From assembly GCA_963758295.1 (NCBI GenBank), contig CAVWUU010000003.1:192001-256000 (forward strand): a stretch of 64,000 bases of DNA, read 5' to 3'. The notes under the pieces were generated by a model that saw nothing but the letters and a program-made list of their open reading frames with translations, searched no databases and was not told the origin of the DNA. Position numbers and translations under genes: made by a program. This document shows, one piece after another, positions 33,941-40,048 of this stretch. This DNA comes from Candidatus Eremiobacteria bacterium. GTDB taxonomy: Bacteria > Vulcanimicrobiota > Vulcanimicrobiia > Vulcanimicrobiales > Vulcanimicrobiaceae. Each line of letters starts with the position of its first letter. Position 1 is the stretch's first letter.

Positions 33941-35074
33941 TTGACCGAAATGCTGAATCTGCTCGTCGAACTCGACGAGCGTTTTGACGAGGCCGCGAGC
34001 GCAGCCGCATTGCAAACTATCGAAAATGCCGGCTTTGACGTTCGCGACGCTCACGGCGCCGACGATCGAACCCTCGCATGGATCGACGACGTCTTCGGCG
34101 GCGCCTGGAGTTCGGAGGCAAACGCTTCAAGCAACATCGTTGCGACGAAGGACGGCGCTCCCGTCGGGTTTGCGAGTTACGATCCCGCGGAGTTACGTTT
34201 CGCGTGGTTACGCGGCGCCGCTGCGCAGGATGACACGGCGGTCTTCGGACCGTTCGGCGTCGATCCGGCGCACCGGGGCGGACCGCTCGGGCCGGCGTTA
34301 TTGACGGCAGCGCTGGCAGGGCTTCGCTCGCGCGGCGCGCGCAGTGCCTGCATTGCAGCCGTCGGAAACCGTAAACTCGTCGAGTACTATGCGCGTCACG
34401 CACGAGCTCGCGTCGCTGAAGAGTTCGATTTGCGTTCGTTTACGCCGAAACCGGTTCGCACGGTGGTTCTCGCCTCCGGAAGCGGGTCCAATTTTCAGTC
34501 GGTGCTGGACCGCGTGGCAGACGGATCGTTGCCGCTCGAGATGCGAGCCTTGGTTTCGAATAAATCGTCGGCGTTTGCCATCGAGCGCGCGAATTTGGCG
34601 AACGTGCCGCACGTGCACGTGTTGCCGTGGAAGCGTGCCGAACAAACGCGTGAAGCGTACGACGAACTGCTTTTAGAGACCGTCGCCGCGGAAGAGCCGC
34701 AACTCGTGCTGTTGCTGGGATGGATGCATCTGTTGGCGCCCTCGTTCGTCACGGCGTTCCCGGAACTCATCAACGTGCACCCCGCGTTCTTGCCGCTTGA
34801 TTCGAGTTGCGATTTCGTCGGCATGCCCGACGGTGCGACGATCCCGGCATTTCGCGGAGCGTTTGCCGTGCGCGACGCCCTCCAAGCCGCGAGTCCATGG
34901 ATCGGCGCGAGCGTGCATGTGGTAACGCCGATAGCGGATCGCGGCCCGATTCTTGTTCGCAAACCGTTGCGCGTGCAAGCCGATGAAACCGAGGAGCGGT
35001 TGCTGGAACGCTTGCATCCGGTCGAGCATTCGTTGGTAGAACGCGGCATTCGCCGATGGCTTTACGAGCGCTAA
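33941..35074 (+). CDS. purN: GNAT-like domain fused to phosphoribosylglycinamide formyltransferase
   Basis: FGPFGVDPAHRGGPLGPALL (GNAT motif A); LASGSGSNFQ, GWMHLL, INVHP, DRGPIL. Confidence 0.85.
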   Translation: MTEMLNLLVELDERFDEAASAAALQTIENAGFDVRDAHGADDRTLAWIDDVFGGAWSSEANASSNIVATKDGAPVGFASYDPAELRFAWLRGAAAQDDTAVFGPFGVDPAHRGGPLGPALLTAALAGLRSRGARSACIAAVGNRKLVEYYARHARARVAEEFDLRSFTPKPVRTVVLASGSGSNFQSVLDRVADGSLPLEMRALVSNKSSAFAIERANLANVPHVHVLPWKRAEQTREAYDELLLETVAAEEPQLVLLLGWMHLLAPSFVTAFPELINVHPAFLPLDSSCDFVGMPDGATIPAFRGAFAVRDALQAASPWIGASVHVVTPIADRGPILVRKPLRVQADETEERLLERLHPVEHSLVERGIRRWLYER

Positions 35075-35156
35075 AGCGAGCAGCGGGTTCGCTGTCTATC
35101 CGCGCGGCGCGGGTAGAATCTTCCGGCATAAAATCTCTAGCATAAGGAGATCGTTC

Positions 35157-35630
35157 GTGAGAAAAACTACCATTGCGTTCGCTGCCCTGCTTGCGGGAGC
35201 GTTGAGCGTAGGAATCGCGCCGGCGCAGGAAACCGCTCCGCCGCCGCCCGCTGGGACGACGACGCAACAAACGACAACCACCACAACCACAACGACGAAC
35301 AACGACACCGATACCACCGTCGATCCGGCGGACGTAGGTCCCAACAATCAGTACGGCGATCCGATCTGCGGCACATGGACAAACGGAACTTGGACGGATA
35401 ACGGCCATTGCCCGGGCTATGCCGTCGGCCCGCGCCGCTCGCACGTTGTCGGGACAATCACCGCCGTTAAGGGGCATCTGGTAACCGTTCAGCAGTCGAC
35501 CAAGACCGTTGTCATCAACGACACGCCGGCGTTAAACAATCAAACCACCGGCAAAGTGGCCGTGGGACGTCAGATCGATGCCTATGGATACTGGAAAGAC
35601 GGCAACTTTTACGCGACGCACATTCTCTAA
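35157..35630 (+). CDS. secreted protein with Thr-rich linker and beta-rich C-terminal domain
   Basis: TAAGGAG SD, signal peptide, poly-Thr tract. Confidence 0.7.
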   Translation: MRKTTIAFAALLAGALSVGIAPAQETAPPPPAGTTTQQTTTTTTTTTNNDTDTTVDPADVGPNNQYGDPICGTWTNGTWTDNGHCPGYAVGPRRSHVVGTITAVKGHLVTVQQSTKTVVINDTPALNNQTTGKVAVGRQIDAYGYWKDGNFYATHIL

Positions 35631-36616
35631 ATACGACCGTCGCTAACGGGGGAGACCGGCTCGCTTCGCGGGCCGGTTTCTTTTTCGTTTAGGATTGCTC
35701 CGAGCAACTCCGCCACTTGGCTCGCTTCCGCCAGAAAGGCATCGTGTCCGTGATCGCTCGCAAGCTCGAAATACGGCGCGTTGAAACGGTGCGCCGTCTC
35801 CTCGATGTCTCGTGGACGGAAAAGCCAATCCGAGCTAATGCCTATGAAACTAAGCGGGGCGCATTCATCGTGCACGCGGTCGCGAACGTCGAAGGAATCC
35901 ATCGCGTGTGTAAGCGCTACGTAGGACGATGATTCCATTCGATCGCGGAATTTGTGCGCCTGATGGTTAAGATACCCTTCGACGTCGAATAAATCGGGGT
36001 TCGTGCGGTCGCGCCGACGGCCGTGCCGCGTTTCCAGCAGGTCTTCCGATTTGTACGTAAGCATTGCAACTTTGCGCGCGAGGCCGAGGCCTCGTTCGGG
36101 ATCGAGTTCGATGCATTCCCGTTGAATCGCGTTGAGGGCAACGGCCATCGGCGTACACCGGTCGTGGGCGCCGATAATGACAGCTCGTCCGACGTCGTGA
36201 GGAGCATCGAGTGCCCATTGAAACGCCTGCATGCCGCCGACGGATCCGCCGGTGACGACCGCGAGGCGCGATAGTCCAAGTGCAGTCAACGCCATCCGCT
36301 GCGCGCGCACGATATCGCGGATCGTGATGCGCGGAAATTTCGTCGCGCCTGACGGTTGCGTAGAGCCGTAACAACTGCCCAGCGCGTTGATCCCTACGAC
36401 GCACCAATGCGCGGGATCGAAAAATGCGCCCGGTCCGGCAATCCCGGGCCACCATTCCATCACGCGACTCGATCCGGTGAGAGCGTGCGGGATGAGGACG
36501 ACGTTCCCGCCGTCCTCCGCCGCATCTCCGTAGATCGTCACTCGCTGCTCGACTGCCGGAAGCACCGTCCCGTTCTCCAGCGGCAAGGCGCCGATACAAA
36601 CGGTCTTTTCGATCAC
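35627..36616 (-). CDS. metX: homoserine O-acetyltransferase
   Basis: HALTGS, GSCYGST, GGSVGGMQA, SSDWLF, HGHDAFL. Confidence 0.9.
   Translation of the reverse strand: MIEKTVCIGALPLENGTVLPAVEQRVTIYGDAAEDGGNVVLIPHALTGSSRVMEWWPGIAGPGAFFDPAHWCVVGINALGSCYGSTQPSGATKFPRITIRDIVRAQRMALTALGLSRLAVVTGGSVGGMQAFQWALDAPHDVGRAVIIGAHDRCTPMAVALNAIQRECIELDPERGLGLARKVAMLTYKSEDLLETRHGRRRDRTNPDLFDVEGYLNHQAHKFRDRMESSSYVALTHAMDSFDVRDRVHDECAPLSFIGISSDWLFRPRDIEETAHRFNAPYFELASDHGHDAFLAEASQVAELLGAILNEKETGPRSEPVSPVSDGRI
35652..35685 (+). terminator. intrinsic terminator
   Basis: GAGACCGGCTCG..CGGGCCGGTTTC followed by a T-run; overlaps the metX 3' end on the other strand. Confidence 0.65.
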
Positions 36617-37914
36617 GCGCTTGCGTCGAGAGATCGAGCGAGATCGCCAATGATGTCGCGCTTGTCTTCGATTCCGACGGACAGCCGGATCGTCGATCCG
36701 GTTACGCCGCTTTGCAGCCGCTCTTCGTCGCTGAGCTGCTGATGCGTCGTACTCGCAGGATGAATCACCAGCGATTTTGCGTCACCGACGTTGGCAAGCA
36801 GCGAGAAAAGTTGCAGCCGGTCGATAAACGAACGAGCCTCGCGTTCTCCGCCATCGATTTCAAACGTCAGAATCGCTCCGGAACCTTCCGGTAAGTAGCG
36901 CTTCGCGCGAGCGCCGGCGGCATCGTTGCGAAGGCCGGGATAAGACACAGCCTTTACTTTCGGGTGAGCGGCGAGGAATTCTGCAACGGCGAGCGCGTTG
37001 CTGCTGTGGCGCTCCACGCGAAGCGCCAGCGTCTCGAGGCCCTGAAGCAGCAGCCACGCATTGAAGGGCGAAAGAGCCGCGCCGACGTCGCGCAGCAATT
37101 GGACCCGCGCTTTCAAGATGTAGGCGATGTTGCCGAAGACGCGTGCGTATTGCAATCCGTGATAAGACGGATCCGGGTCTACGAATTCCGCGAAGCGCTC
37201 CGCATTGGCCCAGTCGAAGGTTCCACCGTCTACGATGACGCCGCCGATGGCGGTGCCGTGGCCGCCGATGAATTTCGTCGCCGAATGTACGACGATGTCG
37301 GCGCCGTGTTCGATGGGCCGGAGCAGAACCGGCGTCGCCAGCGTGTTGTCGACAATGAAAGGCAACCCGTTTCGATGCGCGATATCCGCGAATAGTGCGA
37401 CGTCGAGTACGTCGATTTTGGGATTGCCGATAGTCTCGGCAAAGATGGCCTTGGTGTTCGGCCGGATCGCCGCTTCCACGGCGGAGGGGTCGTTGAAGTT
37501 CACGAGGCTCACCTCGATTCCGAACCGCTTGAGTGTATGCGCGAACGCGTTGTACGTTCCGCCGTACAGCGAGGAAGAACTGACAATGTGATCGCCCGCT
37601 TTTGCAAGCGTGAGAATCGAGTAGACGACAGCGGCCTGGCCGCTCGCGACGGCAAGAGCTGCGGCGCCTTTTTCCAGTGCCGCTAGGCGCTGTTCGAGAA
37701 CGTCGGTCGTGGGGTTGTTGATCCGCGTGTAGATATTTCCAAACTCTTCAAGGGCGAAGAGTTTTCCGGCGTGTTCGGTGGAGTCGAAGAGATACGACGT
37801 CGTCTGGTAGATGGGCACGGCGCGCGCTTTGGTGGCGGGATCGCCGTTGTGGCCGCCATGGATGGCGATAGTATTGAATTGCTGTTGGAGCGGAGATTCA
37901 AGGGTAGTGCTCAC
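36613..37914 (-). CDS. metY: O-acetylhomoserine sulfhydrylase
   Basis: PIYQTTSY, GNIYTRINNPT, HSATKFIGGHG, LANVGDAKSLVIHPASTTHQQL; GTG start after a GGAAAGGA SD. Confidence 0.92.
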   Translation of the reverse strand: MSTTLESPLQQQFNTIAIHGGHNGDPATKARAVPIYQTTSYLFDSTEHAGKLFALEEFGNIYTRINNPTTDVLEQRLAALEKGAAALAVASGQAAVVYSILTLAKAGDHIVSSSSLYGGTYNAFAHTLKRFGIEVSLVNFNDPSAVEAAIRPNTKAIFAETIGNPKIDVLDVALFADIAHRNGLPFIVDNTLATPVLLRPIEHGADIVVHSATKFIGGHGTAIGGVIVDGGTFDWANAERFAEFVDPDPSYHGLQYARVFGNIAYILKARVQLLRDVGAALSPFNAWLLLQGLETLALRVERHSSNALAVAEFLAAHPKVKAVSYPGLRNDAAGARAKRYLPEGSGAILTFEIDGGEREARSFIDRLQLFSLLANVGDAKSLVIHPASTTHQQLSDEERLQSGVTGSTIRLSVGIEDKRDIIGDLARSLDASA

Positions 37915-37921
37915 TGAGGTA

Positions 37922-39082
37922 TTATCCTTTCCCGGCAATGAGTGCGTCCGGTTCGGACGATGCCGGCGCGTCGGTGAGTGGTTTGAGGCAACGTTCGTCC
38001 CACACGCGATAGCGTGGGAGTTTCGCATGGGACCGCAACTCCGAAAAGAGCGGTAAGACTTCGAATGCCGGCGCAAGCGAGTGCCGCTGCGCGCGGTAGG
38101 TTAGGTCGTGGCGTTCGCCGATGGCGCGCAGCGCGCTCACGGCATCGCCGAGTACCGCGGAAGCAGTAGCGCGGCCGCCGGCGCCGACTCCGTGCAGAAG
38201 AAGCGAACCGGCATCGCGCGCCTCTACGTGCACGGCATTTTCCGCGCCGCGAGCCCGTGCGAAGGGATGCTCGCGTGGAACGAGCACTGGCGCAACTTCT
38301 GCTGCAACGCCCGTAGACGTGGCACGGGCCGCCGCAAGCAGGCGGATACGGAAACCAAGCCGGTCCGCAAACTGCACGTCGGCGCGCGTTATGCCGGTGA
38401 TTCCACGGTGTCGAATGCGCGGCGAGATGACCGCAAGTCCGAACGCGAGCTGAACTAGTACGGCAAGCTTATGCGTCGCATCCGTGCCGTCCACGTCGTA
38501 TGCCGGATCGGCCTCGGCGAAGCCGAGCTGCTGCGCTTTCGCGAGTGCTTCCTCGAATTCGGCCCCGCCTTCCATTGCGCTCAGAACGTACGTGCATGTG
38601 CCGTTCACGACGCCTGCGAGCGCGTGGGTGCGATCTCCGGCAAGGGCCTCGTCCAGCATCCGAACGATCGGAACGGCGCCGCAAACGGCCGCCTCATAAC
38701 GCATGGTAACGCGTCGCGCATCGGCGAGGGCCCGCAGGCGCGGTCCTTGCGTCGCAAGCAGATCTTTATTGGCCGTAACGACGTGGCGTCCGCGATCGAG
38801 CGCGCGTTCGATGAGCTCTGCGGCGTCGGTAGTGCCGCCGATGCACTCGATCAATAGATCGACGAGCGGATCGTCGATTAGCGCGTGCGGATCAGAAGTG
38901 AGAAGGGAATGCGGAATTGCGGCCGTGCGTGGTTTTGCGGTATCGCGAACGGCAATGCCGCGAAGCGTGAAACGAACGCCGCTCCGGCGTTCTAAGGCGT
39001 CGCTTTCGGTTAGCAAACGTTCGGCGACGGCCGTTCCGACCGTGCCGCACCCAAGCAAACCGATGCCTAAAGTCCATTGCAT
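37922..39082 (-). CDS. hom: homoserine dehydrogenase, no recognisable ACT domain
   Basis: GLLGCGTVG, VVTANK, YEAAVCGAVP, NGTCTY, GFAEADP, GAGG..TASAV. Confidence 0.92.
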   Translation of the reverse strand: MQWTLGIGLLGCGTVGTAVAERLLTESDALERRSGVRFTLRGIAVRDTAKPRTAAIPHSLLTSDPHALIDDPLVDLLIECIGGTTDAAELIERALDRGRHVVTANKDLLATQGPRLRALADARRVTMRYEAAVCGAVPIVRMLDEALAGDRTHALAGVVNGTCTYVLSAMEGGAEFEEALAKAQQLGFAEADPAYDVDGTDATHKLAVLVQLAFGLAVISPRIRHRGITGITRADVQFADRLGFRIRLLAAARATSTGVAAEVAPVLVPREHPFARARGAENAVHVEARDAGSLLLHGVGAGGRATASAVLGDAVSALRAIGERHDLTYRAQRHSLAPAFEVLPLFSELRSHAKLPRYRVWDERCLKPLTDAPASSEPDALIAGKG

Positions 39083-39114
39083 TCCGTGCTTCCTTTTGAG
39101 ACGGGAAAGCGAGG

Positions 39115-39150
39115 AAACAAAAATGCCCCGCCGGTTCTCCGGCGGGGCAT
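39115..39150 (-). terminator. attenuator-type intrinsic terminator upstream of hom
   Basis: ATGCCCCGCCGG-AGAA-CCGGCGGGGCAT-TTTTGTTT, perfect 12-bp stem. Confidence 0.9.
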
Positions 39151-39186
39151 CTGTGAAACTCGATTGGTGCTCTTACATGAAGCCTT

Positions 39187-39267
39187 TCATCGGTTCACGA
39201 CGTTGCCCGCCGGGTGCATTTGCATCCAACACATGGGGCGCATCGTGGCGACGAAGCTTGCTAACAT
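39187..39267 (-). CDS. putative leaderless Met-rich leader peptide, 26 aa
   Basis: MLASFVATMRPMCWMQMHPAGNVVNR*, 5 Met and 1 Cys; its 3' half is complementary to the terminator 5' arm. Confidence 0.75.
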   Translation of the reverse strand: MLASFVATMRPMCWMQMHPAGNVVNR

Positions 39268-39274
39268 TTCGGAA

Positions 39275-39303
39275 AGGCTAACACACACCCTCGGCGCCGT
39301 CAA
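39275..39303 (-). promoter_or_regulatory. sigma70-like promoter of the met operon
   Basis: TTGACG-N17-TAGCCT with TG extension; leader ATG 7 nt downstream. Confidence 0.75.
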
Positions 39304-39338: not shown

Positions 39339-39569
39339 ATGGCACAAGAAAAGTCGGGCGATCATAAGCATCACGAACACGAGCCTACGGCAGCCGAAGC
39401 ATCGCAACGCGCCGCGCAAGAACGGGAGCAGCAGCGAATTCGCGAGTTAAACGATCTCTCTCGTCAAAACCGCGGCGTTGAAAGGGGAGCGACGGACCTT
39501 GCTCCGCACGAAAACATGACGCCGGCGGAAGAACATCGCGCCGGACCCTTACCCGATCAAAAGCGCTAA
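39339..39569 (+). CDS. small hydrophilic hypothetical protein
   Basis: 76 aa, charged; GGGTAC 9 nt upstream. Confidence 0.6.
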   Translation: MAQEKSGDHKHHEHEPTAAEASQRAAQEREQQRIRELNDLSRQNRGVERGATDLAPHENMTPAEEHRAGPLPDQKR

Positions 39570-40048
39570 CAGCGTCGCGCGCGCATGTCGGCGTGCAATT
39601 GCCGGAGGCGATCGGAAACATAGCCGCGTTCGTCTTGCGTCAGCGTTGAATTTTTCAGTTCGGCGCTTTCGTACGCGATCATCGACTTGTCTGCATCGCA
39701 CGATCCATAGTAGATGTGAGGGACGGCAAATGCGCCCTGTGCGAGCGGCGCCGCAGAAAAGGGTGCGCCGGCGCTGGAATTCGGAATCAGCGGAGGCGGC
39801 GTCGGTGCGCCGGGCGGTTTAGATATGAGCGGCCGCGTATTGATCCGGTACTGCAGCTCCGAAATCTGCTCTTGAATCGCTAACCGCTGTTGCTGCGAAA
39901 CGCCCGGTTGCGTCAACTGGTACTGAAGTTGCGCGATCGTCTGCCGGTCGACGGTTGACTGCGGCAGCGTTTGGGCGGTTGCTATGGCCGGCGTCAGAGC
40001 TGCCGATAGCATGACTATTCGGGCAAGGTGCGCGGCATCGAGAATCAT
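39566..40048 (-). CDS. hypothetical secreted protein
   Basis: Signal peptide ..IATA-Q; Gln/Pro-rich. Confidence 0.6.
   Translation of the reverse strand: MILDAAHLARIVMLSAALTPAIATAQTLPQSTVDRQTIAQLQYQLTQPGVSQQQRLAIQEQISELQYRINTRPLISKPPGAPTPPPLIPNSSAGAPFSAAPLAQGAFAVPHIYYGSCDADKSMIAYESAELKNSTLTQDERGYVSDRLRQLHADMRARRC

Follow-up and report, generated by a model that had tools for sequence, protein, structure and literature searches.

A candidate leaderless leader-peptide attenuator with methionine and cysteine codons upstream of hom-metY-metX in Eremiobacterota

The window analysed here is a 64-kb stretch (64,000 nucleotides) of a Candidatus Eremiobacteria genome, and the subject of this study is the segment between positions 39083 and 39303 of its minus strand, directly ahead of the genes hom, metY and metX. 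It is likely that this segment is a ribosome-mediated (leader-peptide) transcription attenuator which reports the supply of charged methionine and cysteine transfer RNAs (Met-tRNA and Cys-tRNA) and controls hom-metY-metX. The window's element also appears to belong to a family of such elements, which together control four or more kinds of sulfur genes. An earlier sequence-only reading of the window had proposed a methionine-sensing attenuator at this place, and its attenuator interpretation is supported as far as sequence analysis reaches; the sequence-level tests that it named, including a search for known riboswitches and a check for the Met-rich reading frame in relatives, all gave results in its favour. 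The evidence lies in the parts of the element, their conservation, the reading frame, the covariation of the helices and a codon content specific to the downstream gene.

All parts that the sequence-only reading had described are found in the window. The promoter (39275..39303, minus strand) has a -35 box TTGACG at 39303-39298, a 17-nt spacer and a -10 box TAGCCT at 39280-39275, with a TG one base 5' of the -10 box. An ATG follows at 39267, 7 nt past the -10 box, and no Shine-Dalgarno (SD)-like 4-mer occurs in the 20 nt upstream of it. It opens a candidate leaderless open reading frame (ORF) of 26 codons and a stop, MLASFVATMRPMCWMQMHPAGNVVNR (39187..39267, minus strand), with Met at positions 1, 9, 12, 15 and 17 and Cys at 13, and homologous ORFs of 21-29 codons are present in relatives. 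As read from the sequence, the regulatory codon cluster (Met9, Met12, Cys13, Met15 and Met17) spans 39217..39243, and five Met/Cys codons (four internal Met, one Cys) in 25 codons are more than expected from the neighbouring genes (binomial p = 3.6e-4). An intrinsic terminator stands at 39115..39150 (minus strand) ahead of hom, with a perfect 12-bp stem at 39150-39123, an AGAA loop and the tail TTTTGTTT reaching to 39115. The scan tool marks 39152-39121 as terminator-like, with three such sites in the region versus 1.1 expected in shuffles, and the hairpin cannot belong to another gene because the upstream neighbour is a divergent ORF on the plus strand (39339-39569). The 5' strand of the antiterminator (CCGGCGGGC...GTGAAC; 39188..39213, minus strand) lies within the last nine codons of the ORF, and its 3' strand (39139..39164, minus strand) takes in the 5' arm of the terminator (39150-39139), so that the two structures exclude each other. 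Between the U-tract and the start codon of hom lies a near-invariant 29-nt motif, TTCCTCGCTTTCCCGTCTCAAAAGGAAGC (39088..39116, minus strand), which includes the SD sequence GGAAG at 39093-39089.

The design recurs in relatives. Loci fetched by the hom protein alone, without regard to leader or motif, numbered 26 in 23 of 41 related genomes, and eight of them have the full design of promoter, leaderless Met/Cys ORF, terminator and 29-nt motif. metY follows hom in 18 of the 26 loci, all eight full-design loci among them. The leader ORFs of the relatives read MFAAHAMMCPMCCMQMYAARAVMER (in the sole same-genus genome with hom), MFTRPTTMICPMCGMQEACGGDRRA and MSILTSRMFCMCCGGEQAARVFA, and the closest hom loci have a conserved stretch, TTCCTCGCTTTCCCRTCTCA..AGGAGGC, ahead of the hom start and after a GC-rich terminator. 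It was in these hom-based loci, fetched without reference to it, that the 29-nt motif was first noticed. With at most two mismatches the motif is present in 161 of the 401 genomes sampled from the phylum and in 132 of the 296 from the family to which the window belongs, counts that include chance matches inside a membrane-protein gene, removed after inspection. An exact-pattern scan with one genome per species gave 106 loci, labelled nearly all as Eremiobacterota, Vulcanimicrobiota, Baltobacteraceae or Candidatus Cybelea. Of 204 loci, 129 passed a filter that asked for the motif, a pattern resembling a promoter, a downstream gene and an ORF 15-40 codons long; they contain 87 distinct leaders, which come from metagenome-assembled genomes of Eremiobacterota, mostly Baltobacteraceae; the loci dropped were those at contig ends, those with variant -35/-10 boxes, chance matches and five hom loci in which the promoter abuts the motif. 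By downstream gene the 87 leaders divide into 73 before hom, 10 before a sulfonate-binding protein of the SsuA family, three before a gene of the cystathionine gamma-synthase/lyase family and one before cysH. Four unpublished genomes (G245, G024, G004 and G036) are included in the motif genome counts and in the tallies given below for S-adenosylmethionine (SAM) riboswitches and for the search with 3-deoxy-D-arabino-heptulosonate 7-phosphate (DAHP) synthase, and no sequence-level claim depends on them.

The comparison indicates that the leader is conserved as a reading frame. The layout TTGAC-N17/18-TAnnnT is present in the 87 distinct leaders, the -10 box is followed by the ATG after 7 nt in 82 of them, and an SD-like 4-mer within 20 nt upstream of the leader ATG is seen in just one. 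Start and stop codons aside, 326 of the 2031 in-frame codons (16.1%) are ATG, versus 49/1944 and 3/1944 in the other two frames, and in 87/87 leaders the frame set by the 5' ATG, which was never a selection criterion, is the one with most internal ATGs. Family-wide, Met accounts for 16.1% and Cys for 7.4% of leader codons, compared with 1.7% and 0.9% in six neighbouring genes. The 87 leaders give 75 distinct peptides, which form 23 clusters when grouped at 60% identity. In the alignment the first internal Met codon (the Met9 column) is at least 90% conserved and the adjoining codons vary; outside the Met/Cys codons, nucleotide conservation in the ORF region is poor. On the 3' side of the Met/Cys cluster a conserved CGTCGTG is read as GTC-GTG, CGT-CGT or TCG-TCG-TGA depending on the group, and the stop codon shifts by up to about 17 nt among leaders; therefore the downstream part is kept as RNA and the upstream part as codons.

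Codon content also goes with the gene that follows. Leaders before hom average 4.0 Met and 1.7 Cys, those before SsuA-like genes 2 and 2, and those before the cystathionine-synthase-like (metB-like) genes 3.0 and 0.7; the cysH leader, which reads MSSLLGTMCRCCRNC..., has 2 Met and 4 Cys. SsuA-like leaders read MSNLHIMCHMC... and cystathionine-synthase-like leaders ...RMRMYAAGSL. The methionine-sensing part of the sequence-only reading thus stands as regards the enrichment of Met codons, but not as regards Met alone: since the relatives' leaders bear MCC, CMC and MCPMCC runs and the cysH leader is Cys-rich, the comparison supports Met and Cys being sensed together. In the window's own genome, which is 82% complete, the leader described here is the only Met/Cys leader found together with a terminator; a second ORF with four Met/Cys (C4:126662) was considered and has no convincing terminator. 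The same genome has, however, a leader of related build before DAHP synthase (G000:C4 about 718570, minus strand; L205:1688-1771, minus strand), in which TTGACG-N17-TAAGCT-N7-ATG opens MTTLRTFAWWWHLSAAFAGEARAFVMT, an ORF with the run AWWWH, followed by a terminator (CCGTCCGG/CCGGGCGG and a T-run) and by DAHP synthase at L205:787-1605 (minus strand). Leaderless ORFs rich in Trp, Tyr and Phe precede DAHP synthase in the eight closest of the 16 hits examined in relatives and in none of the eight more distant. Judging from this arrangement, the MTTLRTFAWWWHLSAAFAGEARAFVMT element appears to be an aromatic-amino-acid attenuator like aroR of Corynebacterium glutamicum. Monocistronic copies of hom in relatives, in turn, have leaderless ORFs rich in Ile and Thr (MTAHAAIMGISTITSS..., MSARCITSTIMCATSITW...) or in Met, Thr and Ile (MTLSMSMAITMSMITTC...), each followed by a terminator (L021 in G007, L022 in G009 and L027 in G018). 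Such a fit between codons and pathway is in keeping with how leader peptides are known to work, aroR before aroF in C. glutamicum included.

Both of the mutually exclusive helices are borne out by the family. A terminator hairpin was detected downstream of the leader ORF and ahead of the first structural gene in 87/87 leaders, and on the MAFFT alignment 86.7% of its cells are paired, compared with 46-67% in slid controls. Eleven of its 15 pairs have changes on both sides, and the observed covariation score was reached by 0/500 shuffles; the loops of the terminators are not conserved among leaders. For the antiterminator, 39213-39188 pairs with 39164-39139, and this helix is present in the minimum free energy (MFE) structure of the window's nascent RNA (-44.6 kcal/mol, z -1.93). 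The duplex itself has -26.9 kcal/mol versus -15.0 for 200 dinucleotide shuffles, none of which (0/200) was as strong, and over the 87 leaders the duplex of ORF end and terminator 5' arm averages -24.4 kcal/mol versus -17.4 in shuffles, with 69/87 at p <= 0.05. Alignment columns 70-99 and 136-159 have 79.4% of cells paired, versus 42-56% when the partner is slid, and cells changed on both sides number 57 versus 23.8 in shuffles, a value reached by 0/500. Two antiterminator pairs change from C-G to U-A in 12 sequences and from G-C to U-A in 10, and their 3' bases stand at the top of the terminator 5' arm, or in the loop of the sequences that bear the change, so these switches are less readily explained by the terminator stem alone. 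When nascent RNAs are folded before the terminator 3' arm is made, at least six of the nine core 5'-arm bases are paired with the last 36 nt of the ORF in 52/87 leaders, the window's included.

From these parts a working model can be drawn. Transcription would start at or beside the A of the ATG at 39267, giving a leaderless mRNA that a ribosome would engage as soon as its 5' end is exposed. With ample Met and Cys, the ribosome would cross the codon cluster and the 5' strand of the antiterminator, leaving the 5' arm of the terminator free for its 3' arm; the terminator would form and RNA polymerase would halt at the U-tract, ahead of hom. If either Met-tRNA or Cys-tRNA runs short, a stall at Met9, Met12 or Cys13 would let the strand pair with the terminator 5' arm, and with the antiterminator formed, transcription would proceed into hom-metY-metX. 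Without any ribosome the nascent RNA is predicted to take the antiterminator form, and because of this the operon would be switched on as well when initiator Met-tRNA runs short. The window's leader thereby resembles a three-segment design, consisting of the strand at the ORF end, the terminator 5' arm and the terminator 3' arm. A fourth, trp-like anti-antiterminator segment was considered but not established: folding of many leaders predicts a local hairpin across the Met/Cys codons (z mostly -1 to -3), but not in the SsuA group, for which z is about 0.

By position, the earlier codons of the cluster agree with this model, whereas the final one or two do not. A ribosome covers roughly 12 nt past its A-site codon. 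In the window, Met9, Met12 and Cys13 sit 14-28 nt upstream of the antiterminator 5' strand, and by this geometry stalls at Met9, Met12 and probably Cys13 would spare the strand, whereas stalls at Met15 or Met17 would cover part of it. The sequence-only reading had raised the latter as a caveat; it is real, but its reach is limited, as only at the last one or two regulatory codons would a stalled ribosome be near enough to cover the antiterminator, and it limits the model without breaking it because a hungry ribosome meets the upstream codons first. The antiterminator 5' strand is inside the ORF in all 87 leaders, and its distance from the first Met/Cys codon has a median of 33 nt and from the last a median of 4 nt. 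In many relatives the UGA stop lies within the second antiterminator helix.

Several observations weigh against the attenuator interpretation. The promoter scan tool is silent on the window's promoter, whose TAGCCT matches TATAAT at 3/6 positions; what speaks for this promoter is that its position is conserved in relatives. With the same promoter pattern in the window's genome, promoter-to-ATG/GTG spacings of 3-13 nt are each represented by two to eight long ORFs and do not peak clearly at 6-7 nt; because leaderless long genes are thus not visibly enriched, leaderless initiation is an assumption specific to these leaders. Most leaders were found via the motif and a promoter expression, so that frequencies are biased, the invariance of the motif is partly circular and the sequences are related. 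The covariation of the antiterminator is moderate, since nine of its pairs have changes on both sides and 191/500 shuffles reach that number, and the U-A variants may come from one clade and may reflect one or two evolutionary events. In 35/87 leaders the nascent fold does not have the antiterminator as MFE structure. For the full-length RNA the MFE prefers the terminator state (mean -78.6 vs -67.9 kcal/mol), and because of this preference the outcome depends on kinetics, which are beyond the computation made here. A stall at the last Met/Cys codon, at a median of 4 nt from the antiterminator strand, would by the modelled geometry favour termination. Finally, it is from sequence that we infer where transcription starts and terminates, that the ORF is translated, that ribosomes stall on it, and in which direction and how strongly the operon responds.

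The 29-nt motif appears to belong to the regulatory unit. It is almost unchanged across genera and before hom, SsuA-like, cysH and metB-like genes, and its conservation far exceeds that of the rest of the leader. At five loci upstream of hom (L111, L156, L176, L177 and L193, the last being the same place as L059) the promoter abuts the motif, and leader ORF and terminator are absent. Because the promoter at these loci is fused to the motif without the cassette, the arrangement suggests a modular attenuator that was either added at the transcription start or lost from it. A ninth of the 26 hom loci, from another family of the class (L018 in G033), upstream of hom-metX, has a Met/Cys leader, MKRRRTCCTMMTGTRREFRSRCMREE, and a terminator, 10 nt from -10 box to ATG, and no 29-nt motif; because it has the cassette without the motif, the Met/Cys cassette would seem to be older or more widespread than the motif. 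Folding predicts a pairing between GCUUUC of the motif and the SD (GGAGGC, or GGAAGC in the window), whose probability is 0.66 with the terminator forced and 0.39 with the antiterminator forced. Openness of the SD goes from 0.26 in the former state to 0.33 in the latter, and 72/87 leaders shift in the expected way. The motif may add SD sequestration as a second layer, to which the folds lend weak support, or may bind a trans factor. Pairing of the terminator 3' arm with the motif in order to free the SD was also considered and set aside as weak, given a mean pairing probability of 0.36 and the same small difference in SD openness (0.26 vs 0.33). Covariation cannot test the structure of the motif because the motif hardly varies. 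Some candidates were discarded on inspection: the motif variants TTCCTCGCTCTCCCACCT and TTCGTCGCTTTCGCATCT lie inside a conserved reading frame of a membrane protein, perhaps a subunit of NADH dehydrogenase; matches in Cohnella, Paenibacillus, Spirochaetales, Cyanobacteria, Chloroflexota and Saccharibacteria stand outside any leader context and are put down to chance; and the conserved stretch before hom in L006, L007, L010 and L012-L017, first taken as a possible RNA motif, reads as an N-terminal coding extension (LTQPAH).

Terminator and antiterminator could also be operated without a ribosome, by an undescribed RNA switch that binds a ligand or protein (e.g. SAM, Met or a sulfur metabolite), with the ORF being incidental or the 29-nt motif being the sensor. 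In favour of such a switch, the motif is the most conserved part of the leader and is common to four kinds of sulfur genes, it persists in the five hom loci from which ORF and terminator are absent, and GCAUGC palindromes in many leaders could make RNA hairpins. The leader itself argues otherwise: the ORF region is poorly conserved as nucleotides save for its Met/Cys codons, the internal ATGs are in the frame of the 5' ATG in all 87 leaders, the terminator loops are unconserved, Rfam has no match, and the motif, for its part, is too invariant for a structure test. The amino acid enriched also varies with the downstream gene, which is unexpected for an aptamer; that codon content tracks the downstream gene therefore argues against an aptamer and also against a generic sensor of translation. 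We regard an RNA switch of this kind as unlikely.

In a generic sensor, the leader ORF would report overall translation capacity and any slowing of the ribosome would lead to read-through. The architecture does suit any stall, and antitermination is the predicted ribosome-free default for the window's leader, but Met and Cys together make up about a quarter of leader codons vs 2.6% in neighbouring genes, the first internal Met codon has its conservation of at least 90%, and codon identity tracks the pathway in five other leader types, so only a slim chance is left for a sensor without amino acid specificity. It is very improbable, lastly, that the ORF is kept for its product, a functional Met/Cys-rich micro-protein (e.g. 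metal- or redox-active) co-transcribed with hom, with the hairpin being merely a leaky terminator. MxC and CxxC-like spacings do recur, as such a protein might have them, but the 23 peptide clusters have little likeness beyond Met and Cys, the C-terminal part is read in differing frames with a varying stop position, and the ORF always overlaps the antiterminator strand. An attenuator that reads Met and Cys codons is the interpretation that we prefer.

In other phyla, metY, metX and hom are governed by SAM riboswitches (S-box/SAM-I and SAM-IV) and Met T-boxes via a choice between terminator and antiterminator, and met genes are regarded as the domain of SAM riboswitches, T-boxes and protein repressors. 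The sensor in those systems is an aptamer or a leader that binds tRNA, whereas here a translating ribosome is proposed. The Rfam search for such elements gave no match at the gathering score in the 64-kb window, and at E <= 10 nothing relevant, neither SAM nor T-box, between 38900 and 39600, where weak matches to small RNAs cover only the terminator hairpin. A search of 61 Baltobacteraceae genomes, each from a different genus, revealed no SAM-I or SAM-IV riboswitch; its controls matched in Bacillus, Thermus, Deinococcus and Corynebacterium.

The classical leader-peptide attenuators are trpL, hisL, thrL, leuL, pheL and ilvL, and to our knowledge methionine does not figure in the standard list (trp, his, thr, leu, ilv, phe). 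The sequence-only reading likewise knew of no established Met-codon attenuator, and a full-text literature search, with subscription journals outside its coverage, found no published one and no RNA regulation in Eremiobacterota. The window's element is like the classical attenuators in having a short ORF rich in codons for the product of the pathway, an antiterminator and terminator that exclude each other and a U-tract, all before the first biosynthetic gene. It is unlike them in that its family would sense AUG and UGY codons, its ORF is putatively leaderless and has no SD, a 29-nt motif follows the terminator, and a clear conserved pause hairpin or anti-antiterminator hairpin is lacking in the window's leader. 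The model of leader-peptide attenuation used for this comparison is the one summarised in the relevant passages of bioRxiv 10.1101/834739 and of the review PMC11802643.

Another described system comprises the leaderless polycysteine short ORFs of mycobacteria. The passages of Canestrari et al. 2020 (bioRxiv 10.1101/834739) that deal with them describe consecutive Cys codons, no terminator, and control of translation via pairing of the Cys tract with the SD. As far as those passages go, the likeness to the window would lie in a leaderless short ORF, a sulfur amino acid sensed by stalling and sulfur genes downstream, and the differences are that the window's ORF is dominated by Met (four Met, one Cys), that a covarying intrinsic terminator is present and that the phylum is another one. 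A consecutive run of Cys at the 3' end, as in the mycobacterial ORFs, is not seen here: the window has one Cys, and relatives have at most CC to CCC amid Met. Neither is a terminator-free sequestration of the SD, since the covarying terminator is present and the predicted SD pairing differs modestly between states. In the parts of Seliverstov et al. 2005 (PMC1262725) that concern sulfur genes, leader peptides with Cys codons and no terminator hairpins were predicted before cys/cbs operons in Actinobacteria, and no conserved RNA structure is reported there upstream of methionine operons. To that extent the two cases agree in that leader peptides for sulfur amino acids were predicted by comparative genomics. 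The aroR and trpL attenuators of C. glutamicum (Neshat et al. 2014, via the relevant portions of PMC11802643 and PMC3890552) include a leader with aromatic codons before the DAHP synthase gene aroF. On that account aroR matches the AWWWH leader before DAHP synthase in the window's genome, and the same kind of device is seen in a Gram-positive lineage; aroR and trpL concern aromatic amino acids, whereas the window's element concerns Met and Cys.

A conserved attenuator with Met/Cys codons would bring a new specificity to a classic mechanism, and would show how the synthesis of sulfur amino acids is regulated in an uncultured soil phylum with no SAM-I or SAM-IV detected in the 61 family genomes searched. 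It also raises the question of how AUG codons can serve as sensors although initiation itself requires Met-tRNA. We would tentatively suggest, as a possibility that we find rather doubtful, that the sulfur regulon of Baltobacteraceae (hom-metY-metX and the SsuA-like, cysH and cystathionine-synthase-like genes) is built of modular attenuators, in which an exchangeable leaderless cassette of Met codons, Cys codons or both is joined to a common platform of terminator and 29-nt motif, with the motif as a second, independent control point acting via SD sequestration, a trans factor or a small ligand, and in which default antitermination answers a shortage of initiator Met-tRNA. If this is true, the default response to initiator Met-tRNA shortage would explain how a Met-codon attenuator works at all. 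The natural series contains built-in controls, with four types of target gene, varied Met:Cys ratios and the five loci that have kept promoter and motif without the cassette.

The order of genes 3' of the leader on the minus strand is hom, metY and metX. hom, for homoserine dehydrogenase, occupies 37922..39082 (NF004976, 388.8 bits), metY, for O-acetylhomoserine sulfhydrylase, 36613..37914 with a GTG start at 37914 (TIGR01326, 672 bits), and metX, for homoserine O-acetyltransferase, 35627..36616. The top models for metX are TIGR01392 (264.7 bits) and NF001209 (259.4 bits), and both scores are under the curated cut-offs of those models. The operon is flanked by two further minus-strand ORFs, at 34770-35477 (235 codons) and 39566-40048 (160 codons), for which NCBIfam gave no match; the former lies directly 3' of metX and might be a member of the operon. 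The divergent ORF at 39339-39569 (plus strand; 76 codons, MAQEKSGDHKHHEHEP...) is rich in His, Glu and Arg and has its start some 70 nt upstream of the ATG of the leader. Elsewhere in the genome, metH and metK have no leader and no Rfam match, and metE was not found at its 82% completeness. The match to metK, outside the window at G000:C4:947259-948423 (minus strand), is in two pieces with a TGA within the longer piece; a frameshift, an error of assembly or a broken gene could account for this. The metK match directly follows a gene ending in ...YMASWSEGT, which we take, as a guess, to encode S-adenosylhomocysteine hydrolase.

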